NCBI GenBank assembly: GCA_965205505.1
Contig: CBDBHB010000007.1
Location: forward strand, 320,001 to 384,000
Reading direction: 5' to 3'
Origin: Acidobacteriota bacterium
GTDB lineage: Bacteria > Acidobacteriota > UBA890 > WLXD01
Length of the DNA: 64,000 nucleotides
Numbering within the stretch: position 1 is the stretch's first letter; each line of letters starts with the position of its first letter. Both the position numbers and the translations under genes were made by a program. Below the pieces are notes generated by a model, which searched no databases, was not told where the DNA came from, and saw nothing but the letters and a program-made list of their open reading frames with translations. Below, piece after piece: positions 2,655 through 52,199 of the stretch.

Positions 2655-5600
2655 TCAGGCCGAACGCGCCTTGCGAAGGTGCTCTCGAATCGCCTCGACA
2701 AACCGTGGCACGGTATCCCAGACATCACCGACAATCGGATGCACGAGGGGTGTCTTGCGCTGCTCGTTGAGCTTCATCAGCGGTGCATCAGGGTCAACGT
2801 TGAACGACAAGATTACCGCTCGGTCGCCGATGTAGTCGACGTGCTGCGGCGCGCCGGATACCGCCAGGGCAATGATCAGCTTCGGGTTCACCGATACACC
2901 GGTTTGCCCGATCTGGCGATCGGCCGGAAGCAACTCGAGGTCCTGTGTGACCTTTCGCGTCGCCCCGATCATCACGTTGCGCAGGCCCATCTCATCAACG
3001 AGCAGCTGCCGCAGCGGCTCGGCGAGCTCATCGATGCCCGCTCGACCGCCGGCGCCGTAGCCGAAGTCGATGATGATCTCGGCGTCCTGCAGGGTGTCCT
3101 GGTCGCCCGCCAGACTCGCCAGGAATCGGGCCAGCGGATCGTGGCCGGCGTCGTACTCCAAATCGGGCGACCATTTGTAGACTTGGGGTTCCTGCTCCCG
3201 TTCGGAGGCTCTGCGTCCGCCAGTAAGATCGAGCTCCACCGTTGTCCCCAAAGTGAGGACACGGAGGCCGCTCTCGAGCGGCAGCTCGGCCTCCGCACGA
3301 GCTGCGCCTCCATAGATTCGCGTGGCGACGCGGGCGTGTCCGCCGCCATTCGAGATCGACTCGACGTTGTGCCAGCTCCAGCAACGACCGGCCTCGGTGT
3401 TCGCAACGCCGCCGGCCACGAAGCGGGCGAACAGCTCATTTGCCCAGGTTGCCGCAAGCAACCATCGGAGCTCACCGCGGTACTTGGCCCAGAACTCTTC
3501 GAACCACTCGAGATGGCCATGGGCGCTGAAGCCAGCCGCTCCGGCCATCGCTACGATGTACGCCCGACGCGGTCGCACGGCGGCCAGCACGGAGCCTGCC
3601 ACGACCTCCGCGGAAACCTGATCGGTATCGACGGGCACGACCACATCGAGCAACATGCCAACGCCGTCGGCAAGATCGCGAGCAAGACGGAGGTCGGAGT
3701 TGGCGCTTGCGGGGAGCTCGTCGCCGACCGGCGCCAAGACGAACAAACAGCTCCCCGCCTCGTCGTCGCTGGGCTGCTCACGCAGCGACAGCATCCGACC
3801 TTCGTAGGCACTGGCAGGGTCGGTCGCCGCAGCTCCGACCCCGGCTACATCGAGCAGCACACCAACCGCATCCTCCGGCGAGTCGACGCGTAAATCGCGT
3901 CCGTTGCTGGCCGCCACCGCTCGTGCACGATGACGAACACGTACGGTGGCTCGATCCCCCACCAGGTCCGCGGCCGACAGACGCTCGATCTCGGCGGTCG
4001 CAGCGTTCAACCAGGCGCTGAGATCATAGTCGGCTGCTTCGCCGAGACGCGGGAGGGTTGCGACCACACATGGGATCTGAACCGATAGCTCGCGGCCTTC
4101 CCATGAGGCAGCGGCTATCTTCAGCCTCGTGGCGGCACCATCGCCCCAGCGCAGGCTCTCTACTCCGCCATAGACCTTGCTGCCCAGCGCCACGGCCAGG
4201 TAGCTGGACACCACCCCTTGGCCGGTATCTGCGGCGCTCGCGCCGCAGACCACCACGTCGGCAGGTCGACGATTCAATGCGGCGGCGACCACACGTGCCA
4301 CGTAGTCCCCGTCGTGTCGCACCGAGCCAACGCCGTTGGAGGCAGATGAATCGAGATGTACGGCATGATCGGCGCCAAGTGCGAGTGCCGCACGGACGAC
4401 ACTGGCGCCATCGACCCCCGCCAACGTGTAGACGCTGACCTTTATGCGTTGAGGATCGCGTTTCTTGAGCGCGAGTGCCGCCAGTAGCGCGGTCTCATCT
4501 GCCGGATTAGTGAGGCGGAGCGGCTCGGCGAACTCACCATCGGCGAGCCGTGGTCGCGGCGCCGTCGCCGGCACCGGCTTGAGCAAGACCGCGATCTCGA
4601 TCTCGCGGGCGAGATCGGGCTGTTGTCGCTGCTCGATCAGATCGTCGGGCACGAGGCCCCAGCCCTCGGTCGGAGCTCCAGTCTCCTCCAAAGACAAGAA
4701 TCCCAGCTGCGTCTCCGGCGAGTACCGCCCCTCCACGAGATACTCGAGGGCGATCGCGCAGCGTCGCTCTAGCGCCTCGATGCGGGCCAAAGCGCGCTGT
4801 ACGAACAGCCGCGAGGCGCGCTCGAGGCGCGCCCGGTATTCGGCTGGGACTTGGCGCCGTGCGTTCCACTCGAGTCGGTAGAGCACTGCGTCTATCACCT
4901 TGGTCATCCCGGCGACCTCGGCCAAGCGGAAGAAGCACGGTTGCAGCCCGACGTTCGCCCAGACCAGCTGGCCGAAGCTCGCCACCGCACCCTCGAGGTG
5001 GTGGAGCAAACGCTGTCTGGCTCCACCGAGCGCCGCAACCAGCTCCGGATAGGCGAGCTCGTGGCCCTCGGGATCCCCGGCACCACGTTGCCACTCCGGC
5101 AGCACGCGCTGGACGAGGTCCTTCAGCAGCAGAAAGCGCTGCACCTCGTTGGTGCCCTCGTAGATGTTCAGCACCCGGGCGTCGCGCCGCGTCTTCTCGA
5201 CGCGGTGCAGCCAGGTCTGGCCCTCGAGCCCGCGCGCCCGCTCCATCCAGTCGATGCAGTCGTGCTCCGACTCGGTGCCGTAGTACTTGCCGATCGCCGA
5301 CTCCATGCGCACCGAGTCAGTGCACTTGTTGTCGAGCAGCCCGATCATCTCGTAGGTGACCGACGCCGTCCCGACGAGCTCTTCGGCAACACGCCCCATC
5401 CAATATCGCTCCAGCGGCCTCGCCGGGGCGCGCGGCGCATACTCGAAGCCGGGGGCAACGTCACCGCGCAGATAGGGAATCGCATCGGCGGCGAGCTCCG
5501 CGATCGTCGAATGGGTCGTCACCGCCAACCCCGCACGCCCGGTGTTCAAGGTTTCGAGCGCGTTGACCTGACCACGACCGCGGAAGCCGATAATCGCCTC

Positions 5601-8600
5601 GTGCGGCACACGGACGTTGTTGAGCGACAGCTCGTTGGTGGGCGAGCCACGCTGCCCCAGCTTCTCCTCATCGGCTCCCACGACGAGCCCTTCGGCGTGC
5701 CGGTCGACCATGAACCCGGTAACGCCCTCCGGCTCGGTGCGTGCGTACAGCGCCATGCAATGACAGAAGCGCCCGTTGGTAATCCACATCTTGGCGCCGT
5801 TGAGCACCCAGTACTCGTAGAAAGAGTTGCCGGCGGCGTCGGTTCGCAGCAGGCCGATGTCGATGAACTGAACCTTGCGACCACCGTGCATGTAGAAGCG
5901 CGTTCGCTCCGGCGCATCCTGGTCGTAGTCATACTCGGAATGATCGATGAGCGCCGGCTCGGCATCGTCTGCGAAGCGATAGAGCAACCGGCGTTCGTCG
6001 TAGTCGTGTTCCACCCGATCGGCGTCGAGCAAATAGCGTCGCTCGAGCTCGTTGTCCTGGTCGAGCCAGAACCACAGCACTCCGTCGTCGTCGCGGTGCA
6101 CGCGTCGCCGCGCGGCGCGCGCCATGGTTTTCACGCCTCCGGAATCGGACCCGGCAGTAGGCTCAGTAAGCGCGAACGCCGAGATGTAGCCGGCAGAGAT
6201 CGTCTTCAGGAAGAGCTCGTGCGCGCGCTGCCGACGCGGGTACTCCGCGAGGCGCTCCTCGACGGCACCGAGGACGTCATCGATGAGCTCGCGCGCCTGG
6301 CGCAGCTGCGCGCCGAAGCTCTCGAGATCGCGCTGCTGGCCGGCCCGTGTCGCCGCCTGGAACGCCCGCAAGAAACCGCCACCGAGGTACTTCAACACCA
6401 TCGACTCGGCGACGCGCTTCTTGACCAGCGAGCCGATCTCGGCGGTTGCCGCGGCAAGCGCATCGGTGTTCGGCCGTCTCAGCATCGCCAGCACGCGGTC
6501 GATGCCGTCACGGATGTCGCCGAGCACCTCGGGATGCTGGCGCACGCGCTCGAGCTCGGCGCGGGCGCGCGGCAAATCCTGGTACAGGCCGATGAGCGCC
6601 GGCGTCGTACCGATGCTCGTGTTGCCCATGATCGCCAGCGACAACGCCGCATCGCCGTACCGGCCGATGAGCATCGAGAGGATGTAGTACTCGGCCTTCA
6701 GGGCTCCCTCACCGCCGAGCTGTTGGGCAATCGGCATGCGCATGAAGCCCCGCCTGACCATGTAGTCGAGGTCCTCGTCGGGAATCATGTGGAGCTTCTC
6801 AAGATAACGTCCGTACGGCAGCCCATCGAATCTCGGCGCCTCGAAACGCTCACGGAGCTCGGTCTCTAGCTGCCTCCGATAACGCGCCAGCCCCGGGTCG
6901 TGGGCCAGTATCTCGGGCACGCAGCGACGCGACCCAGGGTCGAAGCCGTTGCGAAGCCACTCACCAGATTCATGCGGCTGATCGGCGGTGTAGACGCTCT
7001 CGTAGGGCTCGGAGTCCGGAATCGACGCCGCTGCGAAGTCGCCATTCTCGAGCAACTCGTCGCCGGCGATGAGCGTCGCCGGCGCGAGACCGGCCGCGTC
7101 GATCAATGCCGGAATCTCGGCATTGAGCCGATCGACAACCAACCGCGTCGCCTCGACCATCGCCTCGGTCGGTATGCCGGCGTCAATCCGCCGCATCGAC
7201 CGTACCAGCAAGCTCTTGGCGGCGAGCACCTCGATCACGATGTTGCCGGCAGCGTATGCGGTCAGATCATCGTCGGCACTGCCAAGGCCGCCCGCCCATT
7301 CCTCGGTCTGCTGACATGCAGCCTGGTAGCGTCGTGCCGCCTCGCCAAGCAAGGCATGCTCCGCGGCGCGTGCCGCCCATCGTTGCTCGTCGTCACCGCA
7401 CGGGATCAGGTCGCAGCCCGATCGGGCGGCGGCAAGCCGGCGCCGCCCGACCTGCACGCACAACGCATCGTCGTGGCCGAGCAAAAATCGAAACGGCGCA
7501 CTGTCGCGGTAGTACTTGGCGATGTCGTCATCTTCCGAAAAGGCGGTGCCCCCGAAGATCTGACCGGTGTTGTAGCTGAACGAGCGATCGCCCGGGCCGA
7601 AGGCCTGGCTGGCCAGCACCTTGCTGACCGCCTGCCCGGTCCATTGATCGCCGCCGCCCGGATTGGCGAGCGCCATCGACTCGAGCACGTAGCGGTGCAC
7701 CTCCATCTCAGCCAGCATCTGCTTGACAGCGCCGAACTTGGCCACCGTGTCTCGGCCGGCCTCGTCCTCGAACGTTCCCGGGAACTGCACGCGCCCGGCG
7801 GCGTGCTCGCGGGCACGCTGCAGCAGGTACCTTCCAGATCCGCGAACCGTCGCGAGGTAGCCGGGGAGCGCCACGCCGAGCACCGCCGCCCAAGGCTCTC
7901 CGGCCGCCGGCGCCTCGAGCACTACCTCGTCGACTACTCCCGAAAGGTCGACGCGCCGCGCCGCAGGCACCGTGATGCAGTCGCCGCGCAGGCGCCGGAT
8001 CCGCGCGCCGATCAGACCCACGCTGCCGACGTCCTCGATCACCAGTCGCGGGTCATCGGCATCGATGAGGAAGCCGTCGCTGCCGACGACCACGAGATAG
8101 CGTTGCGCCAGCGCGGTGGGAACGAAGTCGGCGCACACGTCGATCTCGACACCCCCGCCTTGCAGGCGGCGCGCGGCGCGCTGACCACCATGGATGGTCG
8201 CGGCAACCACGCGTGCCGCCTCCAGCTCGGTTTGCGGAGCACCGGCCAGCGCCAACAGGTCGACCGCGAGCAGATGCGACGACGCCATCAGCGCCAGCGC
8301 CGGGTCGGTTGCCGCGAGCTCTTCGAGCACTACGTCCCGAAGCCCGTAGCCGTCCGTTTGCGGCGCCGCGGCGGCAATCTGGTTCCGCAGCCAATCCTCC
8401 TGCTTGTCCGACATCGGTTCGCCGCGCTCCAGAGCACGCACTGCATGGTTGTCGAACCAGCGCTCGCAGCCCTCGCGCACCTCTCCGCGCCAGGCCTCGA
8501 AGTCACGCGGCTCCGCCTCCCGGCGCCGCCACTCGACCGCCTCGAGCTGCTGCTCGACGCACAGGTCGTCGCTCACGCCGACATCGGTCTCAGGCGGCGC

Positions 8601-11339
8601 GGCAGCGGCGTTGCAGACTGCCAAGATGGCGATGAAATGATGGTCCTCGAGCTGCCGGGCGAGCACATCGGCCCAGAAGAACCTGTGTGCCTGGGCATGC
8701 TGTTGCATCTGCTCGAGACGCTCCGCCGCGTCGTCCCAGACGGGTGTGAGCAACTTTGTTGCGGCATTGCTGCCCGAGTCGCTCGTCACCGCTTCCCAGG
8801 TCTGGCGGGCATCGACAAAGGCATCGCGAGCAGCCACAAGGAGGGCGCGGAGATGGCCGCGACGCCCCTCTTCCAAGGCCAGCGGAGAACGCGCCAGATC
8901 GGCACGATAGCCACGCAGGGCGGCGCGCGTGCGCTCCAGCCGAGCGCGCGTGGCTGCGTGGGATGGGCCCGGCAGCGCGCTCGCATCGGCATCGCGAATG
9001 GTATCCAGTAGCTCCGGCAGGAATCCCGGTCGTGAACCCAGACGCGGTTGTGGCTCGGGCCGGTCGGCGAGGTAGGCGTGGAGCTCTTGCTGCGCGGGTG
9101 TATAGGTCTGATAGATGAGCCGCTGCTGGGTGGCGCGGCTCCAGTGCACATCGCCCGTGGCGCGCCAACAAGTCTCGCATTTGATGCAGTTTTCGTAGTT
9201 GACCACCACCCCCGGCTGGCCCGCCGGGTTGCGCCGCACCTCGTAGACCTTGGCCGGACAGATGTTCCACAGCGCCGACGACGACAGGTTGTTCCGGTCG
9301 GCGAGCGGCGTCGGCCACATCACCTTGATGTGGGAGTGGTGGCCGGCCTGATACGTGATCGTGCCCAGCTTCGCCTCGTAGGTCGTGGTGATGGCAACGT
9401 GATCGTCATCGAGGCGGATGCGCTCGTGGTTGTCGGCCAGCAACCGGTTGGTGAGCCGCTGGCCGAAGCGGCTCGGCTCCCAACGCAATACCGAGCGCTG
9501 GAACCACTCGGCGGCCGCCTGCGTCAAGCTGGTTGCGATGACGGCAGCACCGCCGCCCGCGACCACGGCGACATCCCAGATCGACAAGCAACCGGCGAGA
9601 TGCCGTGCCGCGGCCCGGAGCTTGTCGGCCACGTCGGTATCGTCGTTGGTGTAGACCTCGCTGAAAGCGCTCGCCAGCGCGCCGCCGAAACGTCGCCAGT
9701 ACCAACGGAACAGCCACGGAGTCGTGCCGGACTGCTCCCCACCCGCCATCACGCGATACAGAGCCCGCAGCCGCGCTCCGTCGTGCGCCCGTGCCTCCGC
9801 CACGCCGGCCCCGGCTGCCGCTGCGACTGCAGGGTCGGAGCTCTCGGCCAGGCCAACGTGCGTACCCGATCGGCGCGGCAGGAAAGCCCCGACGGTGTTC
9901 CATAGCACCCGCAGCAGGTTGGCGGGCGTGGCCGCAGCGCGAACGAGCATGCCCAAGCCGACTGCGTGGGCCAGGGCGCGGCTGTCGGCCACGATCGAGC
10001 CGTTGCCATCCCTGACGACGCGACGCACGAGCCGCACCACGCTCCAGTAGCGCTTCCAGGAACCCAGCTCCGGACGCGACATGATGTAGGCGCTGTTGTT
10101 CAACAAATCGAGCTGCTTCTCGAAGAAGAACTGCGTGCGCTCGATGTAAGCCGGCCAGTCGTGCAGGTGCTGCACGCTGCGGTAGTAGTGACTCGACTTC
10201 ACCGCCTTGAGGTACGTGTGGCGCAATGCCCGCTCGGTAAACGGCGATTGCGTCGGATCGCCACTACGTCCGAGGCCACCAGAATCGGCGGCGATCTGAC
10301 GCACCGCAGCGGCAAAGTGCAGCCCCATCGCCGTCGCCGGCCCGGTAAAGTTCGGATAGGGAAAGTCGAGGCCGATACCGCTCGCGGCGCCGCCAATGGC
10401 CAGCCCCTCGTCGACCAGCCGCGGAATTTCCTTCAGGCCGCCGCCGCGGATGATCTTGGCGCCGTACGAGGTGAGCTCGCCGCCGTCGATCATGCGGGCG
10501 ATCTCCGGTAGGCCTTTGAACCACTCCATGAGGATGTTGTGGTCGCCTTCGAAGTGCTGCCGGAGGTTGTCGAGCGGTAGAACGAACCCGAGCGACAAGC
10601 TGTCGCGGTTGGTGTAGACGAAGCCGCCCATGTTGAGCCGCGCCGTGCGCCCCTTGCGCGAGGCGTTGCGGAGCAGCATCTCGAAGGCCACGCCTTCGCC
10701 CGGCGCCAAGCCAAAGCGCTCCTCGAGCACGTCCTCCGGGAGCGAGATCACCTCTTTCACGCCCTGCAGGAAGTGCGGTGCTCCCTCGGCTCGATCACGC
10801 TCCGAAACCTGCTCGTAGCCTTCCTGGGTGACCAAATGCGACGCGTCGCCCTCCGCGAGAAACACCACATCGGCATACGCCGGACCGCGCTCGGTGTGAA
10901 CACCGATGACGCGACCTCGATGCCGGATGAGGCTCTGAACAGTAGTCTCGCAGGCGAGCATGACGCCGTGCTGGCGCGCTACCTCGGCCAGATACCGATC
11001 GTAGACGGGCCGCAGCACCGTGTAACAAGAGCGGAAAACGTCGGGTGACAGAAGGCTGGCGCCGAGTAGGCTATGGCCGTTGTACAGGTAGGCGCCGCGC
11101 TCCACGAGTCGGCGCTCGTACGGCGCCGCCGCGACGATGTCGCGGCCGAAGGCATCCGGATGTTCCAGGTTCTCCGAAAAGTAGACGGCACCCGACCAGT
11201 TCTCGGCACCGGGGAAGATCCCCGCTTCGCAGACCAGCACCGCGATTCCGGCCCTGCCGAGGGCCATCGCGGCGATGATACCCGCCGGGCCGGCCCCAAC
11301 GACGATCACATCGAAGCGGTCGGGGGCCAACGTAGTCAT
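2655..11339 (-). CDS. Giant multidomain flavoprotein: FixC-like FAD oxidoreductase + FixX-like ferredoxin + two acyl-CoA dehydrogenase domains + ETF beta + ETF alpha
   Basis: FixC: VGAGPAG, GVKEVISLPEDVLEERFGL, GGFVYTNRDSLSLG. FixX: CPAKVY...CIKCETC. ACAD-1: RVQFPG...QIFGG. ACAD-2: FALTEPTAGSD, LNGAKMWITNG, EEKLGQRGSPTNEL, RVLNIYEGTNEVQR. ETF-beta: LLKPVP...NPADETAL. ETF-alpha: GATRKV, QIGQTGVSVNPKLIIALAVSGAPQH. Confidence 0.9.
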   Translation of the reverse strand: MTTLAPDRFDVIVVGAGPAGIIAAMALGRAGIAVLVCEAGIFPGAENWSGAVYFSENLEHPDAFGRDIVAAAPYERRLVERGAYLYNGHSLLGASLLSPDVFRSCYTVLRPVYDRYLAEVARQHGVMLACETTVQSLIRHRGRVIGVHTERGPAYADVVFLAEGDASHLVTQEGYEQVSERDRAEGAPHFLQGVKEVISLPEDVLEERFGLAPGEGVAFEMLLRNASRKGRTARLNMGGFVYTNRDSLSLGFVLPLDNLRQHFEGDHNILMEWFKGLPEIARMIDGGELTSYGAKIIRGGGLKEIPRLVDEGLAIGGAASGIGLDFPYPNFTGPATAMGLHFAAAVRQIAADSGGLGRSGDPTQSPFTERALRHTYLKAVKSSHYYRSVQHLHDWPAYIERTQFFFEKQLDLLNNSAYIMSRPELGSWKRYWSVVRLVRRVVRDGNGSIVADSRALAHAVGLGMLVRAAATPANLLRVLWNTVGAFLPRRSGTHVGLAESSDPAVAAAAGAGVAEARAHDGARLRALYRVMAGGEQSGTTPWLFRWYWRRFGGALASAFSEVYTNDDTDVADKLRAAARHLAGCLSIWDVAVVAGGGAAVIATSLTQAAAEWFQRSVLRWEPSRFGQRLTNRLLADNHERIRLDDDHVAITTTYEAKLGTITYQAGHHSHIKVMWPTPLADRNNLSSSALWNICPAKVYEVRRNPAGQPGVVVNYENCIKCETCWRATGDVHWSRATQQRLIYQTYTPAQQELHAYLADRPEPQPRLGSRPGFLPELLDTIRDADASALPGPSHAATRARLERTRAALRGYRADLARSPLALEEGRRGHLRALLVAARDAFVDARQTWEAVTSDSGSNAATKLLTPVWDDAAERLEQMQQHAQAHRFFWADVLARQLEDHHFIAILAVCNAAAAPPETDVGVSDDLCVEQQLEAVEWRRREAEPRDFEAWRGEVREGCERWFDNHAVRALERGEPMSDKQEDWLRNQIAAAAPQTDGYGLRDVVLEELAATDPALALMASSHLLAVDLLALAGAPQTELEAARVVAATIHGGQRAARRLQGGGVEIDVCADFVPTALAQRYLVVVGSDGFLIDADDPRLVIEDVGSVGLIGARIRRLRGDCITVPAARRVDLSGVVDEVVLEAPAAGEPWAAVLGVALPGYLATVRGSGRYLLQRAREHAAGRVQFPGTFEDEAGRDTVAKFGAVKQMLAEMEVHRYVLESMALANPGGGDQWTGQAVSKVLASQAFGPGDRSFSYNTGQIFGGTAFSEDDDIAKYYRDSAPFRFLLGHDDALCVQVGRRRLAAARSGCDLIPCGDDEQRWAARAAEHALLGEAARRYQAACQQTEEWAGGLGSADDDLTAYAAGNIVIEVLAAKSLLVRSMRRIDAGIPTEAMVEATRLVVDRLNAEIPALIDAAGLAPATLIAGDELLENGDFAAASIPDSEPYESVYTADQPHESGEWLRNGFDPGSRRCVPEILAHDPGLARYRRQLETELRERFEAPRFDGLPYGRYLEKLHMIPDEDLDYMVRRGFMRMPIAQQLGGEGALKAEYYILSMLIGRYGDAALSLAIMGNTSIGTTPALIGLYQDLPRARAELERVRQHPEVLGDIRDGIDRVLAMLRRPNTDALAAATAEIGSLVKKRVAESMVLKYLGGGFLRAFQAATRAGQQRDLESFGAQLRQARELIDDVLGAVEERLAEYPRRQRAHELFLKTISAGYISAFALTEPTAGSDSGGVKTMARAARRRVHRDDDGVLWFWLDQDNELERRYLLDADRVEHDYDERRLLYRFADDAEPALIDHSEYDYDQDAPERTRFYMHGGRKVQFIDIGLLRTDAAGNSFYEYWVLNGAKMWITNGRFCHCMALYARTEPEGVTGFMVDRHAEGLVVGADEEKLGQRGSPTNELSLNNVRVPHEAIIGFRGRGQVNALETLNTGRAGLAVTTHSTIAELAADAIPYLRGDVAPGFEYAPRAPARPLERYWMGRVAEELVGTASVTYEMIGLLDNKCTDSVRMESAIGKYYGTESEHDCIDWMERARGLEGQTWLHRVEKTRRDARVLNIYEGTNEVQRFLLLKDLVQRVLPEWQRGAGDPEGHELAYPELVAALGGARQRLLHHLEGAVASFGQLVWANVGLQPCFFRLAEVAGMTKVIDAVLYRLEWNARRQVPAEYRARLERASRLFVQRALARIEALERRCAIALEYLVEGRYSPETQLGFLSLEETGAPTEGWGLVPDDLIEQRQQPDLAREIEIAVLLKPVPATAPRPRLADGEFAEPLRLTNPADETALLAALALKKRDPQRIKVSVYTLAGVDGASVVRAALALGADHAVHLDSSASNGVGSVRHDGDYVARVVAAALNRRPADVVVCGASAADTGQGVVSSYLAVALGSKVYGGVESLRWGDGAATRLKIAAASWEGRELSVQIPCVVATLPRLGEAADYDLSAWLNAATAEIERLSAADLVGDRATVRVRHRARAVAASNGRDLRVDSPEDAVGVLLDVAGVGAAATDPASAYEGRMLSLREQPSDDEAGSCLFVLAPVGDELPASANSDLRLARDLADGVGMLLDVVVPVDTDQVSAEVVAGSVLAAVRPRRAYIVAMAGAAGFSAHGHLEWFEEFWAKYRGELRWLLAATWANELFARFVAGGVANTEAGRCWSWHNVESISNGGGHARVATRIYGGAARAEAELPLESGLRVLTLGTTVELDLTGGRRASEREQEPQVYKWSPDLEYDAGHDPLARFLASLAGDQDTLQDAEIIIDFGYGAGGRAGIDELAEPLRQLLVDEMGLRNVMIGATRKVTQDLELLPADRQIGQTGVSVNPKLIIALAVSGAPQHVDYIGDRAVILSFNVDPDAPLMKLNEQRKTPLVHPIVGDVWDTVPRFVEAIREHLRKARSA

Positions 11340-21353: not shown

Positions 21354-24113
21354 TCAGTCGGCGCGCAATGCTTGCACGGGATCCAGCCGCGCGGCGCGGC
21401 GAGCCGGCAACCAGTTGGCGAGGCCGGCGACCAGCAGCAGGATCAGGAACGCCGCTGCGAACGCCAGTGGATCGAGGGCGCCGACGCCGTAGAGAACGGA
21501 TGCGAGTGCTCGGGACAGTAGTGCCGAGGCGACGCCCCCGACGGCCGCACCGATCGCTACCAGCCCGAGACCGCGTCGCAAGACCAACTGCACGACGTCC
21601 GCGCTGGCGGCGCCGAGCGCCATCCGCACGCCGATCTCCTTGGACCGTCGCGCCACGGAGTAAGCGATCACACCGTATAGACCCACCGACACGAGCAGGA
21701 GCGCGATCACGCCCGCGGAAATCAGCATGGCCGCGCCGAAGCGGACCGGGAACAGTGCCATCGCCAGGATTCCGAGCATGTCGCTGTCGTTCGTGAAGAC
21801 AAGCTCAGGCTCTATGGCGAGCAGCTCCTGCCGTACTGCGGTGCGCAGCTGCGGCGTGTCGCGGTCGAGCCGCACGGCGATGGTCCCATTCGAACGCGAA
21901 TTCTGCTCATCCGCATAGTAGAGATACGGGATGGGTTCCTCGCCGACGGTGCGGACCTTCGTGTCGGCCACCACACCGATGATCTCGTAGCTCGGTCCGT
22001 CGAGGCCGTCGGTGTGGAACCTCTGGCCGACGGCCCCGCCAGGGAAATCGCGCTCCGCGAGAGCCATGGAGACCATCGCGACGGCGAGTGACTCCGGCGT
22101 GTCCTGTGCGCCAAAGGCGCGCCCGCGCAGCAGCGGCACACCGAGAGCATCGAAGTAGCCGCTGTCGACCGTCGTGATGTCGACCGCGATGGCCGGGTCG
22201 TCGGACGTTACTTGCCGACCTTCGATGTAGATCCCGTCCTGGCTGAGGCCCAGACTCAGTGGCATGCGGCTGGTACGCCCTACGGCACGTACGCCGGGCA
22301 GCGCGCCGATCCGCGCTACGGCAGTATCGAAGAACTGATCGGCGTCCTCGCGGGAGTAGTCGAGCAGGTCCAGATCCACTGTGTAAGCCAGGAGGCCGTT
22401 GGGATCGAACCCCAGGTCCACGTTGGTCGCCGATTGCACGCTGCGCACCATCAATGCCGCGCCGACGAGCAGCACGATGCAGACCGCGACCTGCACCACG
22501 ACGAGGGCGCCTCGAAGTCCGTACTTGCGGCCGGACCCCTCGCTTCCACGCGCGCCGTCCTTGAGCGCAGCGACCAGGTCGGTTCGGGAGCCGCGGAGCG
22601 CCGGCGCGAGGCCGAAGATCAGGCCGGCGGCTACCGCCAGGGCGAAGGTGAAGGCGATGACTCTGCCGTCCATCGGGAGGTTCCAACTCACGGGAATCGC
22701 GCTTGGCGGCCGGAAACTCAGCAGCAACCCGCGCAGCCAGATTGTCAGGCCGACACCACCGATCCCGCCGAGAAACGCGAGCACCAGGCTCTCGGTAAGC
22801 AGCTGGCGCACGAGGCGCGCTTTGCCGGCGCCAAGGGCCAGACGAACGGCGATCTCGCGGCTTCGCGCCGACGCTCGCGACAGGGTCATCGCAGCGATGT
22901 TCGTACAGGCGCTGACCAGTACGAGACCGACCATGCCGAGCAGGAGGGCCGCGACCGGGGCCAGATAGCCGTCGGCCATCGGGTGGACGCGCACGCTGGT
23001 GGCAGGCAGCACACGGGCTCCCCATCCTTCATTGATGTCGGGGTACTCGACTGCAAGCCGCGCGAAGATCGCGTCCATCTCTGCTTGCACCTGTGCCACG
23101 CTGGCACCTTGGGCGAGACGCCCCTTGAGCATCATCCAACGGCTACCGCGCTGTTCGGGGCGCGTGTCTCCCGGCGAAGTCTCATAGGACAGGACGCCGA
23201 ACGGGTCGATCTCTTCGGCCATCGTAGCCGGGAGCCACAGTTGAGCGTCGAACACGTGGACGAGGCCGTTGAACTCTGGCGGCGCGATGCCGATCACCGT
23301 GTAGGGTCGACCGTTCAGAGTCAGCGCCTCCCCGATGATCGATTTGTCGCCGGCGAAACGGTCGTGCCAGAAACCGTGCCCCAGCACTACGACTGGATGG
23401 CCGCCGGGCACGCGGTCGTCATCGGGGCCGATCAGCCGCTCCATCTGCGGCGTGATTCCCAGGAGCTCGAAGAAGTTGCCGGTGATGAACTCGCCGTAGA
23501 CCATCTCGGCGCGGCCGTTCGACGTCATGCTCGCGCCGAGCATGGAATGGCCCGCAATACCGCTGACCGTCGTGGCCGATTCGCTGATGCTCAGATAGTC
23601 GGGGTAAGAGCTCGTGATCGGAACGCCGTACTCGGCATTGAACGAGTAGATCTCGACCAGCTCCTCGGGCGCCCGCACGGGCAGCGGCCGCAGCAGCAAC
23701 GTGTTGACCATCGTGAAGATCGTGGCGTTGATCCCGACCCCGATCGTCAGCGTGAGCACCACAACGGCGACATACATCGGGCTGCGCCCGAGCGTGCGAA
23801 CCGCGAACCGCATGTCCTGCCAGATTGTTTCCATGATGAAGGCGTCTCGGGGGAACTTCGGAAGGTGCCGCCGGCCCGAAGGTTGCTTGAGAGAAAGAGC
23901 GACCCGGTGCGAATCGCGCGCAAAGAGAAGGCGAACCGGCGTGACGAGGACGTGGCGCGCATACCAGGCGGTGGCACGGACCCTGCCGTCGCGCCGAGCG
24001 CGGTAGCGAAACAGCTCGGCGAGATCGGCGGGCAGCACATCGCGGTCGCGTCGCGGCAGCGTCAGCCGGAGGATGCCGGCCAACAGTCGAGGTGGAGCGA
24101 GCCGCGCGCTCAT
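21354..24113 (-). CDS. Duplicated orphan ABC permease (ADOP, MacB/FtsX x2)
   Basis: QDMRFAVRTL, LTIGVGINATIF, REIAVRLALGA, SKEIGVRMALGA, PARRAARLDPVQALRAD; no ATPase domain. Confidence 0.9.
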   Translation of the reverse strand: MSARLAPPRLLAGILRLTLPRRDRDVLPADLAELFRYRARRDGRVRATAWYARHVLVTPVRLLFARDSHRVALSLKQPSGRRHLPKFPRDAFIMETIWQDMRFAVRTLGRSPMYVAVVVLTLTIGVGINATIFTMVNTLLLRPLPVRAPEELVEIYSFNAEYGVPITSSYPDYLSISESATTVSGIAGHSMLGASMTSNGRAEMVYGEFITGNFFELLGITPQMERLIGPDDDRVPGGHPVVVLGHGFWHDRFAGDKSIIGEALTLNGRPYTVIGIAPPEFNGLVHVFDAQLWLPATMAEEIDPFGVLSYETSPGDTRPEQRGSRWMMLKGRLAQGASVAQVQAEMDAIFARLAVEYPDINEGWGARVLPATSVRVHPMADGYLAPVAALLLGMVGLVLVSACTNIAAMTLSRASARSREIAVRLALGAGKARLVRQLLTESLVLAFLGGIGGVGLTIWLRGLLLSFRPPSAIPVSWNLPMDGRVIAFTFALAVAAGLIFGLAPALRGSRTDLVAALKDGARGSEGSGRKYGLRGALVVVQVAVCIVLLVGAALMVRSVQSATNVDLGFDPNGLLAYTVDLDLLDYSREDADQFFDTAVARIGALPGVRAVGRTSRMPLSLGLSQDGIYIEGRQVTSDDPAIAVDITTVDSGYFDALGVPLLRGRAFGAQDTPESLAVAMVSMALAERDFPGGAVGQRFHTDGLDGPSYEIIGVVADTKVRTVGEEPIPYLYYADEQNSRSNGTIAVRLDRDTPQLRTAVRQELLAIEPELVFTNDSDMLGILAMALFPVRFGAAMLISAGVIALLLVSVGLYGVIAYSVARRSKEIGVRMALGAASADVVQLVLRRGLGLVAIGAAVGGVASALLSRALASVLYGVGALDPLAFAAAFLILLLVAGLANWLPARRAARLDPVQALRAD

Positions 24114-24442
24114 TTCGCCTCGTCCAGGCGTTCCTCGACGCCATCCCAGAGCGTGACCAGCGCTTTGCGCGACGCGCTCAGCGTGTCGATGCCCTCGGGC
24201 GTGATGCTGACCACGCGCCGCGTGCGTGACCCACGTGCGCCCGCCGCATCGTCGAGGCGCGAAGCGACAAGGCCCTTCTTCTCGAGTCTTCGCAGAGCGA
24301 TGTACACGGCCGCCGGCGCCGCCTCACGACCCGTCTGCTCTTCAAGCTCGAGTACGATCGGCACCGTGTAGGTGTCGTCGCCGAGCCGCAGGATCGACAG
24401 CAGAATCTGATGTTCGAAGCCGCCAAGCACGTCGCGTCCCAT
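24110..24442 (-). CDS. PadR family transcriptional regulator (acidobacterial type)
   Basis: LGGFEHQILLSILRL, AVYIALRRLEKKGLV; ATGA overlap with the permease. Confidence 0.88.
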   Translation of the reverse strand: MGRDVLGGFEHQILLSILRLGDDTYTVPIVLELEEQTGREAAPAAVYIALRRLEKKGLVASRLDDAAGARGSRTRRVVSITPEGIDTLSASRKALVTLWDGVEERLDEAK

Positions 24443-24503
24443 AGGGTTCGTCCTAGTTCCAATAGCGTTGCCGGGTGACCAGATCGTTACACTGATCAGT
24501 CCA

Positions 24504-24518
24504 TCTAACAACGTTAGA
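24504..24518. promoter_or_regulatory. Inverted repeat TCTAAC-AAC-GTTAGA upstream of padR (candidate operator)
   Basis: Perfect 6-bp arms about 60 bp upstream of the padR start. Confidence 0.4.
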
Positions 24519-29470: not shown

Positions 29471-32155
29471 TTATTGACCCGATCGAAGCCCGATGGCCGG
29501 GTCCACCGCCGCAGCCCGACGAGCCGGCAAGTATGTCGCCGCCAGCGCCACACACAGCAGCAACAACGCCATGGCAACGAAGGTCACAGGATCGCCGGCG
29601 TTGATCTCGTACAACAGGCTGTCGAGCGCCCGGGTGACGGCGAAGGCGGCCAGCAGCCCCATCAACACCCCCGCCAGCGTCACCACGGCGCCCTCGCGCA
29701 AAACCATCTGCCGTACGTCGGCAGCGCGCGCCCCCAACGCCATGCGCAGACCGATCTCCCGCGAGCGCTGGCTGACGGTATACGAGATCACTCCGTAAAG
29801 ACCGATGGTGCCGAGAAACAGTGCCACGCCCGCCGCAATGATGAGCAGCGTCATGGTGAAGCTGGTACGCACCGACGCGCTGGCGACGAGGCTCTCGAGA
29901 GTACGGATGTTGGCAATCGGCAGGTTGGCATCGGCCGCCGCGACCGCCTCCCGTATCGAGCCCGCGATGGCCAGCGGATCGCCGTTCGTACGCACCACCA
30001 GGCTAAAGGTGTACGAGAACGTGTCGTCGTCGATCGCTCCTTCGAGCATCGGATAGTAGAAGATCGGTGTGGGGTCGTCGGCGATGTCGCGGTCGCTGCC
30101 CACCACGCCTGCCACGGCGTTGAACGCCGGCCCACGCGACAGGTCCTGTCCGGCTCGCTTCTGCAGCGCCGATTCCTGCGGCCACATCTGATCGGCCAGT
30201 GCGGCGTTGACCATCACCGAGCTAGCCGCGGCGTCGTAGTTGTAACGATCAACGACCGTGCCATCGAGCAGCGGAATCCCCATCACGTCGAAGTATCCGG
30301 CCGTGGTGTGCTTGAACGTAACGACCGGCAACAACACGTTGGGATCCAGCTCGCTGCCCTCGACGTAGAGCGGATCGAAGCGCACCCCTGGAGTCAACGG
30401 CAGCGCGCTGACCGCACCGGCCCGCTGCACGCCCGGGATCGCTTCCACCCGCTCGATGATGGTGTTGAGCAAGCGCACCACATCATCTGAAGCAACGTAG
30501 TCGTTGGGCGGCGCGACGATCTGAGCGGTAAGGACACCACCGGGGCGGAAGCCGAGGTCGACATCGCGAAGACGCCAGAAGCTCTGCACCATCAGAGCCG
30601 ATCCCACCAACAATGTAAGGGCCAGCGCGACCTGCGCGGCGACCAGCAGATTGCGGCCACGATGTTGCTGGCGCGAGGCTGTGGACGACCGAGCGTCGTC
30701 CTTGAGTGTCGATGCCAGATCGGAGCGCCCGTAGCGGACGATCGGCAGGCATCCCAAAGCGACACCAGCGAGTCCCGCGAGCAAGGCGGTGAAGGCGATC
30801 ACCTCGCCGCTGACACGCACCTCGTGCAGCCGCGGGATGCCAGCCTCCGACGCCACCACTGCACCGACTCCCGCATAGGCGATCGCCAGGCCGAGAAGGC
30901 ATCCGGCACCGGCGAGCAGCAGCGCCTCAGACAGAAAGTAGCGGGCCATCTGCACCCGCGACGCCCCCAGCGCCAGGCGCACCGCCACCTCACGATGACG
31001 GCTCTCCGATCGCACCAGGAACAAGTTGGCTACGTTGGCGCAGGCGATCGTCAACAGCAACGCGACGCTGCCGAGCAACACCCAAAGCGCCCGCCCGATG
31101 CCGCCCAGGAAGTGGTCCTTGAGTGGTTCGACGAGAAGCGTGAGGCCCGAGCTCTCGATCATTTCTGGCGGCACACCGTAGACCTCCGACAACGCCGGAA
31201 TGAGGCCGTCGAGCTCGGCCTTCACCTGCGCCGGGGTTACGCCGGGCCGCATGCGCCCGACGCCGGGTCGGAAGAGCCCGCCGAAGCGGATATCGTCGGG
31301 GCTCGGGTTGGTGGTGGTGTACAGATCGACACCGGGGCTCGGAAAATTGACTCCACGTGGCAGCACGCCGATTACCTCGCGGGGGCGGCTGTTGATCCGC
31401 AGGGTGCGCCCGACAATCTCCGCATCACCGCCGTAGCGGCGCTGCCAAAATCCGTGACTGAGAATCACCGTGTTGGGCTCCGGCGTGGCATTGTCGGCCT
31501 CGCTGAAGTCGCGCCCCAGCAGCGGCCGTATCCCGAGTGTGTTGAGCAGCGGTGGGATGGTCGTTACCACGTTGATGCGCTCCGGCTCCCCCTCACCCGA
31601 CAGGTTGGCCGACGTCTCGACGATGAACGCGGCGTTCTCCAGGGTTTGCGTGTGCTCCATGTAGTGAAGGTAAGTACCGTACGAGAGCCCGATCACCGGC
31701 AAGTCGAGTCCGGGCGCTGAATGTTCGAGAGCGACGAGACGATCCGGAGCCTCATAAGGCAGCGGCTGGATGAGCACGCCGTGCACGAGGCTGAAGATGG
31801 CGGAGTTGGCGCCGATCCCGAGCCCGAGCGTAACTACGGCAGCGAGGCTGAATCCGGGGGCCTTCACCAATCTACGGGTTGCCTGTAGCAGTGCAGCAAG
31901 GGTGCTTTCCATAGCTGAGCTCGCGTCGAGGTTGGAGGGATATTGCCGGGAGATGGCGGCACGATGGCGAAGGCTGGGACCGATGGAGCGCGCCAGCTCG
32001 CGCCAGTACCATGCCGCGACGTCGGCCGGGCGATCACCGCCTTGCAATCGCCGCCGATAGTCTTCGGAGAGATCGTCGAGGATGAACTGCCGGTGCTTCG
32101 GCGCCAGCACACGGCGAAGCACGGCCCTGGCAATTCGTGGCGGCTGGGCGCTCAT
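29471..32155 (-). CDS. Duplicated orphan ABC permease (ADOP)
   Basis: LGLGIGANSAIFS, IACANVANLFL, REVAVRLALGA, REIGLRMALGA, PARRAAAVDP. Confidence 0.9.
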   Translation of the reverse strand: MSAQPPRIARAVLRRVLAPKHRQFILDDLSEDYRRRLQGGDRPADVAAWYWRELARSIGPSLRHRAAISRQYPSNLDASSAMESTLAALLQATRRLVKAPGFSLAAVVTLGLGIGANSAIFSLVHGVLIQPLPYEAPDRLVALEHSAPGLDLPVIGLSYGTYLHYMEHTQTLENAAFIVETSANLSGEGEPERINVVTTIPPLLNTLGIRPLLGRDFSEADNATPEPNTVILSHGFWQRRYGGDAEIVGRTLRINSRPREVIGVLPRGVNFPSPGVDLYTTTNPSPDDIRFGGLFRPGVGRMRPGVTPAQVKAELDGLIPALSEVYGVPPEMIESSGLTLLVEPLKDHFLGGIGRALWVLLGSVALLLTIACANVANLFLVRSESRHREVAVRLALGASRVQMARYFLSEALLLAGAGCLLGLAIAYAGVGAVVASEAGIPRLHEVRVSGEVIAFTALLAGLAGVALGCLPIVRYGRSDLASTLKDDARSSTASRQQHRGRNLLVAAQVALALTLLVGSALMVQSFWRLRDVDLGFRPGGVLTAQIVAPPNDYVASDDVVRLLNTIIERVEAIPGVQRAGAVSALPLTPGVRFDPLYVEGSELDPNVLLPVVTFKHTTAGYFDVMGIPLLDGTVVDRYNYDAAASSVMVNAALADQMWPQESALQKRAGQDLSRGPAFNAVAGVVGSDRDIADDPTPIFYYPMLEGAIDDDTFSYTFSLVVRTNGDPLAIAGSIREAVAAADANLPIANIRTLESLVASASVRTSFTMTLLIIAAGVALFLGTIGLYGVISYTVSQRSREIGLRMALGARAADVRQMVLREGAVVTLAGVLMGLLAAFAVTRALDSLLYEINAGDPVTFVAMALLLLCVALAATYLPARRAAAVDPAIGLRSGQ

Positions 32156-32478
32156 TGCGATCCCAGCTCGACGCCGTCCCACATGCGCTGCATGGCCTCA
32201 CGGGCATCAGCCAGAGCGCGTTCGCCGTCGGGGCGAATGCGGAAGTGCTTGCGTGCCCGCCCGCCGCGCTCACGAATCGGCTCCGACAGCCAGACCTGCA
32301 CATAGCCGCGCCGTTGCAGTCGATCGAGAGCCGCGTACACCGCCGCCATCGACACCGGGCGCTGCGCCCGCGCCTCGATCTCCTCGCGCACGGTGACTCC
32401 GTAGGCATCGGTGCCCAGCCGCGCCAGCGACAACAGCACGAACTGTTCGATCTCATTCAGCGATGCGGATCGGCTCAT
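32152..32478 (-). CDS. PadR family transcriptional regulator
   Basis: EIEQFVLLSLARL, AYGVTVREEI, AVYAALDRL, RGGRARKHF; ATGA overlap with the permease. Confidence 0.9.
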   Translation of the reverse strand: MSRSASLNEIEQFVLLSLARLGTDAYGVTVREEIEARAQRPVSMAAVYAALDRLQRRGYVQVWLSEPIRERGGRARKHFRIRPDGERALADAREAMQRMWDGVELGSQ

Positions 32479-47994: not shown

Positions 47995-48133
47995 AACTCC
48001 AAGCGTTCAGGTGTCCACGGAAGTGAGGTAACTTCACCCCCCTCACCAACTGCAGCAGCGTGACCGGACACCGCCTAGCTGGTAACTCTCGGCTACAATC
48101 TCCACCTTCTGCATCTCAAGCACCCCACGGATC

Positions 48134-50634: not shown

Positions 50635-50804
50635 ATAGCGGTCCGTGGCGGTAGTGGATTTCAAGCCGGGTAGGCAGAAGCGGGGGAACAAGGCGCCGTT
50701 TCAAGAAGAAGTGCGGAGATCAGGCGGCGTTGGTGCATGGCTCCTGATCTCAGCGCATCATCGTGGCAAGGTCCCCGATCTGGAGTTGCCACCCATGAAG
50801 TACC

Positions 50805-50900
50805 CCGTGACGATCCGCGGGGAGCGCCACTACTTCTGGCGCGCTGTTGATCAGGACGGCGACGTGATCGATATCTTGGTCCAACGGCGACGAAACGCCT
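50805..50900 (+). mobile_element. IS6 family transposase fragment
   Basis: VTIRGERHYFWRAVDQDGDVIDILVQRRRN. Confidence 0.75.
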
Positions 50901-51087
50901 GCGCCGCCAACTTCGAGGGCGGGCCTTTGGGACCTGGGGCAAGGTAGTCACCGCCTGAGCCAAGTCGGCTCTAGGCCGCAGCTCGCCCGGAGCCGAGCGT
51001 CGCGTCCTTAACTTGACAGTGCCCTCGCGTAAGTTCAACAGACGGCAAAGGAAATCAACTCTCGTTAACCGAGTCCTCATCACACAC

Positions 51088-51124
51088 GGTGGAAGTCCCA
51101 GGTTCAAATCCCGGTGCGCCCACT
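51088..51124 (+). other. Degenerate 3' tRNA fragment (possible att remnant)
   Basis: CCAGG-TTCAAAT-CCCGG T arm followed by TGCGCCCA; no 5' half. Confidence 0.45.
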
Positions 51125-51129
51125 CCTGA

Positions 51130-51604
51130 ATATCGCAGAGCTTCGTTCCGCCATTCCGCGCCTGGGCTCGCTGTTCGCTCCCAGGCGAGGGGAGCCCGCC
51201 TGCCTAGGTCTTGGGCTTGGTCACCCGGTTGCCCACCGGTTTGTGGACGCGGAGACGACAGGGCCTCCCAGGTTCCTGGGCATCCCTCGTGCGCGCATGC
51301 CCCGCTCTCGGACCCCGGTGGAATCTCGGTGTCAGGCCCTTTCCGACACCTCGATGCTGCCTTCCGCTGTTGTGACGGCGTCGGCTTCTACGCCTTCCAA
51401 CTTTCGGGGCTCTATCACGCAGCCTGCTCGCTCCCTGTGTACGCTTCGCGGCGCCGGTTACCCGCTCACCACGCAACACTCGGTTCCGGCTGGTGGCCAG
51501 CCTTTGCCGGGCGGGGCTGTTTACCCGCCGGGATGCTCAGAGGATTTCCGAGCCTGTCATCTTTCGACCTCTCTTCCCTCCTCTCCAGGCTTTGCCTGGC
51601 GCAA
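51130..51604 (-). mobile_element. Group II intron 5' fragment (domain I and downstream), no RT ORF and no D5/D6
   Basis: Minus strand begins TTGCGCCAGGCAAAGCCTGG and contains CCAGCCGGAACCGAGTGTTGCGTGG, GCGAAGCGTACACAGGG, AGCCCCGAAA, GCGGAAGGCAGCA, CCACCGGGGTCCGAGAGCGGGGCATG, CCCAGGAACCTGGGAGGCCC. Confidence 0.75.
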
Positions 51605-52199
51605 CACAACTTCCGGGTATATCTCTTTCTCAGATGGAAGAAGGTAGAGGATGCGATAGTCTTTACGAAGCAGAATGTCCTCTCCGTCCTTAAGCAATGC
51701 AACGATCAGATCTACTCCGACAAGGTAGAGATTGTCCCTCTGTCCGACGTCATCAAAACCCACGGCGTTCGTCGGCCGTTGCCTAAGGATGCTGACGCGA
51801 GAAAGAAGTTGCTAATCCACAGTGGGTTTCTCAAAGAGAAAGGGGTTCCCTTCTACCTTTCCACGCGCAAGAAGGGGACGCTTGATCCGACATTCGATGC
51901 ATCGTCGCTGCGGTAGCGTCTCGTTCGGCTCAACGCACAATGTCGCTATCGCGGCACGAATGGCGCACACTCGCCGAGACGACAGCCTACCCCTCGCCCA
52001 GCGTAGTTCCCCTACTAGACCATAGCCGACGGGCTCGGCGTCCGCAGGAAATAAGTCGAGGCCTCAGAATTGATTCTGGCGGCCGTCGACGAGGCCTCCA
52101 CAGCCGGTGCTGGTCTTGAAGAACTCCGATAGCTGCGGATCGCCATCATCTGGATACGAGTCTCTCCTACCGAGCGGCGTCGACCATAGAGAGGAGAAT

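Follow-up and report, generated by a model that had tools for sequence, protein, structure and literature searches.

A gene on a 64,000-nucleotide stretch from an Acidobacteriota bacterium (contig CBDBHB010000007.1, positions 320,001 to 384,000; hereafter the window) encodes a giant protein that contains two tandem acyl-CoA dehydrogenase (ACAD) domains, ACAD-1 and ACAD-2. These domains quite probably constitute an ancient pair that packs like the two subunits of an ACAD dimer, as a pseudo-heterodimer with a single working active site, and that serves as a module of a single-chain electron path. The gene (positions 2655..11339 of the window, minus strand, like all its features given below) is a single open reading frame (ORF) of 2,894 amino acids (aa) with an ATG start. 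According to its Pfam and NCBIfam domains, the product, P0001, is a FixC-FixX-ACAD-1-ext1-ACAD-2-ext2-ETFβ-ETFα fusion, where ETF stands for electron transfer flavoprotein and ext1 and ext2 for helical extensions.

An earlier note on the region 4700-8480, which lies on the coding (minus) strand inside this ORF, had claimed that the two ACAD domains keep complementary halves of the flavin adenine dinucleotide (FAD) site. All eight motifs quoted there are found in the translation of the one 2,894-aa ORF where the note had placed them. What the analysis shows directly is the pattern of motifs, how it is conserved throughout the family, which folds the domains have and in what order they stand, and a model that is confident overall.

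Reciprocal halves of the FAD site

In MCAD-type enzymes, the RxQFG and QxxGG elements contact the adenosine diphosphate (ADP) part of the FAD of the partner subunit. In ordinary ACADs, RxQFG contacts the pyrophosphate/ADP and QxxGG the adenosine of the partner FAD. The assignment of the ADP contacts to the partner subunit agrees with passages on ChsE and CasC (PMC11153573, PMC8399759). A word-indexed protein search with aa 960-2110 of P0001 as the query gave 379 proteins, the best 120 of which were listed. Of these, 118 (all except the N-terminally truncated P0021 and P0030) were aligned with MAFFT for the conservation counts.

ACAD-1 (aa 926-1308, 7416..8564) has a complete but degenerate ACAD fold, with helical, β, and helical domains in the secondary structure of an AlphaFold2 (AF2) model. 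The R1183-V-Q-F stretch (7782..7793), which begins the RVQFPG motif (aa 1183-1188, nucleotides 7776-7793), is equivalent to RxQF(G) in alignments with VLCAD and canonical ACADs. Q1260-I-F-G-G (aa 1260-1264, 7548..7562), aligned with QIMGG of VLCAD, is equivalent to QxxGG. Arg1183, Gln1185, Phe1186, Gln1260, Gly1263, and Gly1264 are all invariant (118/118), as are Ser1268, Glu1269, Arg1278, and Asp1279. Directly after RVQF, a conserved insertion specific to the family, PGTFEDEAGRDTVAK (aa 1187-1201, 7737..7781), adds approximately nine residues relative to VLCAD and canonical ACADs in the alignments. Asp1192 and Lys1201 in this insertion are conserved in 118/118 members, Phe1190 in 114/118, and Asp1197 in 113/118. 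KFGAVKQMLAEME (aa 1201-1213), another motif quoted earlier, is also found in the translation.

In the pairwise alignment of ACAD-1 with VLCAD, HAAGRVQFPG is opposite HATNRTQFG, QIFGGTAF is opposite QIMGGMGF, and FRFLLGHDD is opposite FRIFEGTND. Since FLLGHDD (aa 1285-1291) is aligned with the FEGTND stretch (IFEGTND), Leu1287 (7479..7481) occupies the catalytic Glu position, which is also seen in alignments with canonical ACADs. The column holds Leu in 58 members, Gly in 20, Ile in 17, Val in 6, Phe in 4, Ala in 3, and other residues in the rest, with Glu in 0/118. Where ordinary ACADs have the flavin loop and strand (TEP..GSD and WITN), ACAD-1 is unconserved and has gaps in approximately 46/118 members, and its N-terminal and β domains show low conservation. 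The C domain is present in 120/120 listed proteins, short forms of approximately 2,480 aa included. Thus, ACAD-1 is as the earlier note described it, with RVQF and QIFGG kept, the Glu position lost, and neither TEPxxGSD nor KxWITN present.

Pfam does not call ACAD-1 separately on the whole protein, and gives no N- or middle-domain match inside it. ACAD-1 alone matches the C-terminal half of VLCAD (E 1e-6). A profile built from 25 ACAD-1 sequences matches ordinary ACADs near full length (2dvl, 5.1e-14; 7p98, 6.3e-14; VLCAD, 1.8e-11), covering chain residues 62-355 of 2dvl and residues 11-386 of 8i4p. ACAD-1 has the three-domain α/β/α fold of ACADs with detectable sequence kinship. Judged by its sequence, with neither the catalytic Glu nor the flavin loop and strand, it does not qualify as an enzyme. 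Matches of the profile with TAL effectors (E ~0.02) involve a short helical stretch and were rejected as chance matches.

ACAD-2 (aa 1475-2084, 5088..6917) belongs to the ACAD superfamily by its domains and motifs. Pfam finds the ACAD middle and C-terminal domains above threshold at aa 1841-2072 (PF02770, 2.5e-18, 66.4 bits with a cut-off of 33.3; PF00441, 6.9e-21, 75.4 bits with a cut-off of 22.4). The domain matches 72 ACADs of solved structure at E<=1e-3, including CarC (6fah_C, 2.7e-32), MmgC (5lnx), ACAD9, and VLCAD, and its best NCBIfam match is NF058590, the VLCAD / ACAD9 / Bacillus FadE type. In the AF2 model, its N domain contains extra helices and its β domain is interrupted by a long insertion.

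The flavin-binding and catalytic elements of ACAD-2 are strictly kept. TEPTAGSD (aa 1725-1732, 6144..6167), the flavin/ribityl loop, is aligned with LTEPGAGSD of CarC, and its Thr, Glu, Pro, Gly, Ser, and Asp are found in 117, 118, 117, 118, 117, and 118 members, respectively. In KMWITN (5775..5792), the flavin-contacting β strand within KMWITNG (aa 1850-1856), the Lys, Trp, Thr, and Asn are each invariant. The RDARVLNIYEGTNEVQR segment (5136..5186) carries the catalytic Glu2061 (nucleotides 5157-5159) in IYEGTNEVQR (aa 2059-2068). TEPTAGSD, KMWITNG, and IYEGTNEVQR all align with the matching elements of CarC and MmgC. The residues conserved in 118/118 members are Glu1726, Gly1730, Asp1732, Lys1850, Trp1852, Thr1854, and Asn1855 in the flavin part, and Arg2052, Asp2053, Arg2055, Ile2059, Tyr2060, Glu2061, Gly2062, Asn2064, Glu2065, and Gln2067 in the C domain.

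The partner-type elements of ACAD-2 have decayed. The RxQFG equivalent, YLRGDVAPGFEYAPRAPARP (5415..5474), has Asp at the position of the Arg in CarC, MmgC, and canonical ACADs, and YLRGDVAPG is opposite YAKERKQFG or YAKQRVQFG in the alignments with CarC and Bacillus MmgC. Across the family this region (aa 1958-1975) is variable and rich in insertions and deletions. ARGLEG (aa 2035-2040, 5220..5237) replaces QxxGGxG; it is aligned with QIHGGY of CarC, and ARGLEGQTW is opposite QIHGGYGYI. The Gln column is occupied by Ile (65), Leu (35), Ala (8), and Val (8), and the second-Gly column by Glu (75), Asp (18), and Ala (16). ACAD-2 does not have its own RxQFG and QxxGG, which a self-complementary homodimer requires. 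Two ordinary ACADs from related loci give the same motif equivalences for both domains. The CarC and MmgC alignments and the family columns thus uphold the earlier description of ACAD-2, in which TEPTAGSD, KMWITNG, and IYEGTNE are kept and the other two elements are lost.

A complete FAD site within either domain alone was not seen; the alignments show reciprocal halves in 118/118 members. Judging from these alignments, the complementary pattern is far beyond chance and is kept by selection. The flavin pocket of ACAD-1 is unconserved, yet its partner-type elements are invariant, and those elements therefore appear to serve the flavin of another ACAD domain.

Probable pairing of the two ACAD domains

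The AF2 model of the single chain from aa 920 to 2110 (1,191 residues; 27-row alignment) has a mean predicted local distance difference test score (pLDDT) of 86.0 and a predicted template modelling score (pTM) of 0.85. It contains two complete three-domain ACAD units (helical N, β, and helical C) and a helical extension of approximately 120 residues after ACAD-1. Since a pTM of 0.85 would be unreachable if two bodies of approximately 500 and 600 residues were randomly placed, the ACAD-1 and ACAD-2 bodies appear to be confidently placed relative to each other and mutually packed. The best Foldseek matches are VLCAD and ACAD9 (3b96 and 8phe; approximately 570 aligned columns, TMt 0.65-0.66), followed by SCAD, CarC, and Bcd (TMt ~0.8). 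The extension after ACAD-1, ext1 (aa 1316-1432, 7044..7394; AF2 helices at fragment residues 397-513), is VLCAD-like. A similar helical extension, ext2 (aa 2098-2226, 4662..5048), follows ACAD-2, with helices at fragment residues 14-142 of a second AF2 model. In hhalign, ACAD-1 plus ext1 and ACAD-2 plus ext2 are collinear over 300 columns, extensions included, with a weak score.

In a tree built from the C domains (51 rows, with both ACADs of 20 family members and 11 ordinary ACADs), ACAD-1 falls in one clade and ACAD-2 in another (SH-aLRT 100), with parallel internal groupings. Because the two clades are separate and have matching sub-groupings, the tandem is ancestral to the family and older than its radiation. 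The tree leaves the kinship of ACAD-1, ACAD-2, and the ordinary ACADs without resolution, and an internal duplication is plausible.

One composite site per tandem, as the earlier note proposed, is supported by the motif reciprocity, the family-wide conservation, and the AF2 model, and the dimer geometry is read from these. In such a site, ACAD-2 would hold the isoalloxazine ring through TEP..GSD and KMWITN, and would also contribute the pocket for acyl-CoA and, with Glu2061, the catalytic base. ACAD-1 would be a pseudo-enzyme whose sole conserved task is to close the ACAD-2 site from the opposite side, with Arg1183, Gln1185, and Phe1186 together with Gln1260, Gly1263, and Gly1264 contacting the ADP part of the FAD in ACAD-2. 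The mirror-image site would have decayed on both sides. For the tandem, we infer canonical ACAD-dimer geometry, these FAD contacts, the number of FADs bound, and pairing within one chain; for the chain around it, we infer which way electrons flow and that quinone accepts them.

The same composite site could also be built in trans, from ACAD-1 of one chain and ACAD-2 of a second, to give a domain-swapped dimer with two sites per dimer. Sequence conservation cannot separate cis from trans, and the approximately 170 residues between the two ACADs (ext1 and a linker) permit both arrangements. The overall confidence of the single-chain AF2 model, however, favors the intramolecular one. ACADs of the VLCAD type, which carry a C-terminal extension, generally form dimers and not tetramers, so that a cis pair would already be complete. 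Pairing in trans thus seems improbable, even though ChsE-type enzymes are described as α2β2 heterotetramers in a passage of PMC8399759.

It is very unlikely that ACAD-1 is a structural relic or spacer left from an old duplication, with ACAD-2 binding FAD alone or as an ACAD-2 homodimer. The poor conservation of the N and β domains of ACAD-1, their trimming in the short forms, and the fact that Pfam calls no separate ACAD-1 domain would suit a relic. However, the invariant elements are precisely those of the partner type, with adjacent positions varying, and a homodimer of ACAD-2, which has lost these elements, would leave both FADs without their usual ADP contacts.

A separate nucleotide ligand of ACAD-1 (ADP, adenosine monophosphate (AMP), or a second FAD), with a structural or regulatory role independent of the ACAD-2 flavin, is hardly to be expected, since in ACADs these elements face the partner subunit and form no closed pocket, and ACAD-1 lacks the flavin loop and strand. 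The conserved Arg and Gln-Gly-Gly could nevertheless hold any ADP-containing ligand, and the structural AMP in ETF described in a passage of PMC8958531 is a precedent.

The fused chain, its proposed electron path, its family, and its gene context

The predicted composite ACAD site is flanked by modules with which it would form an electron path. The N-terminal FixC-like domain resembles FAD-dependent ETF:quinone oxidoreductases (aa 6-416, 10092..11324; aa 6-407 in the Pfam/NCBIfam order), with matches to NF007450 (E 1.4e-49) and the FixC family NF007542 (E 6.4e-43) that are both below the curated cut-offs. Among solved structures, it matches Thermotoga FixC (7koe_C, E 1.6e-32, aa 8-416, 409 residues) and ETF-QO, the ETF:quinone oxidoreductase (2gmh, E 7.5e-9). 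The FixX/ETF-QO-type [4Fe-4S] motif, CPAKVYE...CIKCETC with four Cys residues (aa 694-724, 9168..9260; domain match aa 689-724), is recognized by PF05187 (E 5e-5, 23.8 bits with a cut-off of 24). Its four Cys columns (CPA..VYE; C-x2-C-x2-C) are near-invariant in the family alignments. By these features the FixCX part has a FixC domain and the four Cys residues; as its scores lie under the equivalog cut-offs, it is assigned as a relative rather than an orthologue.

At the other end, an ETF β-subunit-like domain (aa 2247-2484, 3888..4601) is found by PF01012 (1.3e-10) and by Foldseek matches to ETF β chains (TMt 0.73-0.81, e.g., 1t9g_S and 1efv_B). It is followed by domains that resemble the ETF α subunit, the FAD domain among them (aa 2529-2894, 2658..3755; PF00766, 1.1e-14; 5ol2_A, 5.7e-12; 7koe_B, 1.5e-11; Foldseek 4kpu_A, E 1e-14). 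In the Pfam/NCBIfam order, the ETF domain spans aa 2278-2458 and the α FAD domain aa 2750-2834. The region therefore comprises a β-type domain, an α N-domain, and an α FAD domain, with PF01012 and PF00766 above cut-off. In the AF2 model of aa 2085-2894 (pLDDT 84.9, pTM 0.72), the helical ext2 precedes a complete ETF, β before α, and Foldseek matches this region to both chains of canonical as well as bifurcating ETFs.

A chain with the order FixC-FixX-ACAD'-ACAD-ETFβ-ETFα is in principle a complete acyl-CoA-to-quinone electron chain. Electrons would pass from acyl-CoA to the FAD of ACAD-2, then to the ETF FAD, the FixX [4Fe-4S] cluster/FixC FAD, and quinone, and each chain would match its one ACAD site with a single ETF and a single quinone reductase. 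From the modules encoded, the protein would most likely act as a self-contained acyl-CoA:quinone oxidoreductase of β-oxidation.

The ETF β domain also allows another view of this path. Its nucleotide "zipper" motif is AADTGQ (aa 2369-2374, 4218-4235). According to the signatures given in a passage of PMC8958531, DGDTAQ marks a bifurcating ETF with two FADs and DDDxNQ a canonical ETF with FAD and AMP; the window motif is nearer to the former. The motif is moderately conserved in 50 recovered members (Asp in 40/50, Thr in 37/50, Gly in 24/50, and Gln in 35/50), and the canonical Asn is outside the five commonest residues. Since the motif is of the DTGQ type rather than the canonical DxNQ type, a second, bifurcating FAD in the ETF module is hinted at. 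The protein would then be a single-chain FixABCX-type electron-bifurcating or confurcating machine with a one-site ACAD, which we consider a rather unlikely reading. If true, it would couple acyl-CoA/enoyl-CoA chemistry not only to the (mena)quinone pool but also to NAD(H) or a low-potential carrier, and it would explain the 1:1:1 fusion of all partners in these phyla. The phyla that carry the fusion are, in general, menaquinone users.

The fusion is shared by a family of large proteins. P0002 is a homologue of the same length with 83% identity over the searched region (aa 960-2110). The listed members are nearly all 2,450-3,040 aa long with the same Pfam set, and are labeled in the databases only as "acyl-CoA dehydrogenase family protein" or "ETF-quinone oxidoreductase". 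In an exhaustive HMMER search of 1.84 billion representatives (50% identity) with ACAD-1 alone, 115 proteins were found at E<=1e-3. The long matches lie mostly at approximately 850-1250 of chains of approximately 2,300-2,900 aa, and the short ones resemble fragments. For the latter (P0127, P0137, P0214, etc.), BLAST to P0001 and the positions of the ends point, in most cases, to a fragment or to a piece with a frameshift. A search for shorter proteins found no stand-alone form of ACAD-1, its five matches all being fragments on contigs of 2-9 kb. A search for smaller forms of 655-2,085 aa gave eight matches, namely five family fragments and three unrelated tandem ACADs of 722-723 aa.

Of the 80 loci retained from a scan of genomes that represent species, L001-L041 belong to the family, all in metagenome-assembled genomes, and L042-L080 are ordinary ACADs. 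The family loci are from Acidobacteriota, Planctomycetia/Gemmataceae (Planctomycetota), Verrucomicrobiia (Verrucomicrobiota), Nitrospirota, Gemmatimonadota, Leptospirillia, and Lentisphaeraceae. In a short form of approximately 2,480 aa (48/113 scored), the distance from the FixX motif to RVQF is reduced by approximately 170 residues and ext1 is also shorter, so that much of the N/β region of ACAD-1 is missing and the C domain is kept. Short forms occur in Verrucomicrobiia (P0039-P0093 and others of approximately 2,470-2,590 aa; loci L011, L015, L016, L020, and L021). By their Pfam lists, P0057 (1,933 aa, on a contig of 146 kb) and P0066 (2,100 aa, on a contig of 809 kb) end before the ETF α domain; in these two the gene may be naturally split, with a separate gene for ETF.

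The gene context points to fatty-acid β-oxidation and not to steroid clusters. In 5/41 related loci, genes for a thiolase and a FadB-type hydratase/3-hydroxyacyl-CoA dehydrogenase adjoin the giant gene on its own strand (L025:885-3179 and L031:2-1270, and also in L009, L036, and L040). In Verrucomicrobiia loci, a glycerol-3-phosphate-dehydrogenase-like (GlpD-like) gene is found downstream in eight and a glycerophosphodiester phosphodiesterase gene in five.

Several observations weigh against the reading of the tandem as a cis composite site in a simple acyl-CoA-to-quinone path. The geometry of the ACAD dimer is deduced from overall model scores rather than from coordinates, predicted aligned error, or an FAD-bound model. 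In the ligand-free AF2 model, the loop just after Arg1183 (fragment residues 265-282) has a pLDDT below 50; the insertion PGTFEDEAGRDTVAK located there may become ordered upon FAD binding or touch another module. Profile homology between ACAD-1 and ACAD-2 is weak (hhalign E 3.9e-4, probability 36%). The FixC, FixX, ETF, and ACAD_N scores are under curated cut-offs (in NCBIfam, and in part in Pfam). The ETF β motif departs from that of canonical ETFs with one FAD, so that the simple path may be incomplete. β-Oxidation neighbors are not found within the 64-kb window, and 36/41 related loci are without them in the DNA stretches examined.

Two ORFs without Pfam matches (1159-2241 and 2308-2640, both on the minus strand) are directly downstream of the giant gene. 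Elsewhere, the window contains four MacB/FtsX-type permease ORFs (21354-24113, 29471-32182, 61148-61954, and 61915-63780, all minus), one of which is preceded by a PadR regulator (24110-24511, minus), as well as two sulfatases, an S15 peptidase, a γ-glutamyltranspeptidase, and MutY, with no link to β-oxidation. The GC content of positions 48001-52000 is 0.562, compared with ~0.65-0.67 elsewhere. A 7TMR-DISM histidine kinase/response-regulator hybrid (48928-50634) is encoded there, along with ORFs that have no Pfam match.

Comparison with known systems

The sharing of one FAD site by a catalytic ACAD and a pseudo-ACAD is, as far as the passages cited below describe it, already established for steroid-degrading actinobacteria. 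The window tandem is probably a further, independent case, which suggests that this solution evolves repeatedly. The earlier note had compared it with mycobacterial ChsE heteromers that divide the roles between two genes. That division agrees with passages of PMC11153573 and PMC8399759, and closer precedents are the fused CasC and ChsE3/FadE34. Passages of PMC11153573 describe the FAD of ChsE4-ChsE5 and of ChsE1-ChsE2 as bound by both subunits, its isoalloxazine by α, which also has the Glu, and its ADP-ribose by β. The α2β2 heteromeric ACADs, namely ChsE4-ChsE5, ChsE1-ChsE2, IpdE1-IpdE2, and Scd1AB, are described there and in PMC8399759 as having one FAD per αβ pair, with the substrate site in the α subunit. 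The window tandem shows the same division in one chain instead of two genes: one partner has the Glu and the isoalloxazine site, and the other lacks the Glu and keeps the Arg for the ADP contact. ChsE/IpdE chains are absent from the best 60 of 78 solved-structure matches of the ACAD-1 profile and from the best 60 of 72 of ACAD-2, and SCAD, Bcd, CarC, and VLCAD types lead these matches. Since no such chain is among them for either domain, an origin of the window tandem independent of the ChsE/IpdE clade is likely by this comparison.

In CasC, the catalytic Glu is in the C-terminal domain only and FAD binding depends on the N-terminal one (passage of PMC8399759), and ChsE3 and CasC are each described with two fused domains (passage of PMC11333196). 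Like the window tandem, CasC (Rhodococcus jostii RHA1) and ChsE3/FadE34 have, in these descriptions, two ACADs in one chain, with the helper first and the catalytic domain second. They are, however, stand-alone actinobacterial enzymes for steroid C5 side chains according to a passage of PMC8399759, whereas the window pair sits between FixCX and ETF. The window tandem also differs in the VLCAD-like helical extension on each unit, in its phyla, and in its fatty-acid context. The likeness to CasC/FadE34 described here is one of domain order and of roles. CasC/FadE34-type enzymes are approximately 700 aa long, and their primary paper, Ruprecht 2015, reportedly includes arginine mutagenesis.

A tandem with the reverse order is found in P0230, a metagenomic protein of 723 aa with two ACAD units by Pfam. 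Its catalytic half has TEPHAGSD, KMFVTN, and IGEGTNE without RxQFG/QxxGG, and its helper half has RSTFG and IHGGYG without the Glu. Unlike the window tandem, it has the catalytic half first and no FixCX or ETF, and it shows 31% identity over 25% of the query. The complementary decay in this reverse order suggests that the solution has arisen more than once. P0231 and P0232 are metagenomic tandem ACADs with the same decay and the same reverse order. P0209 (369 aa), which is ACAD-like and stands alone, carries REQFG and QLHGG and lacks the catalytic Glu; it resembles a β-type subunit and is 28% identical to ACAD-1. ACAD-1 look-alikes in the ESM Atlas are ACAD-family clusters of 320-390 aa whose Pfam matches are mainly to the C-terminal domain, and they are a lead toward β-type subunits.

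VLCAD, ACAD9, and Bacillus FadE, the best structural matches, share the C-terminal helical extension with the window units. VLCAD-type homodimers, including ACAD9, carry two complete FAD sites, whereas in the window protein the halves are fused and diverged and one site is predicted. Among the best 60 of 72 matches, the solved ACADs nearest to ACAD-2 are CarC and Bcd.

The novelty of the window protein lies in its context, the all-in-one fusion, more than in the composite site. A full-text literature search found no description of a FixCX-ACAD-ETF fusion. The greater value of the case is that a quinone reductase, an ACAD pair, and both ETF subunits are fused, in proteins widespread in abundant soil and water phyla. 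A one-site ACAD would give the chain a 1:1:1 stoichiometry, and a description of the family would correct the present database labels. The fusion would also be a convenient single-particle target for the docking of, and electron transfer among, ACAD, ETF, and ETF:quinone reductase, which in unfused systems depend on transient complexes. FixABCX/EtfABCX, Bcd-EtfAB, CarCDE, and the mitochondrial ACAD-ETF-ETF:QO relay are made from the same parts as the window chain, namely FixC, a FixX-type cluster, ETF α and β, and ACAD. Those systems are multi-subunit or freely diffusing, whereas in the window protein all the parts are fused in one polypeptide.

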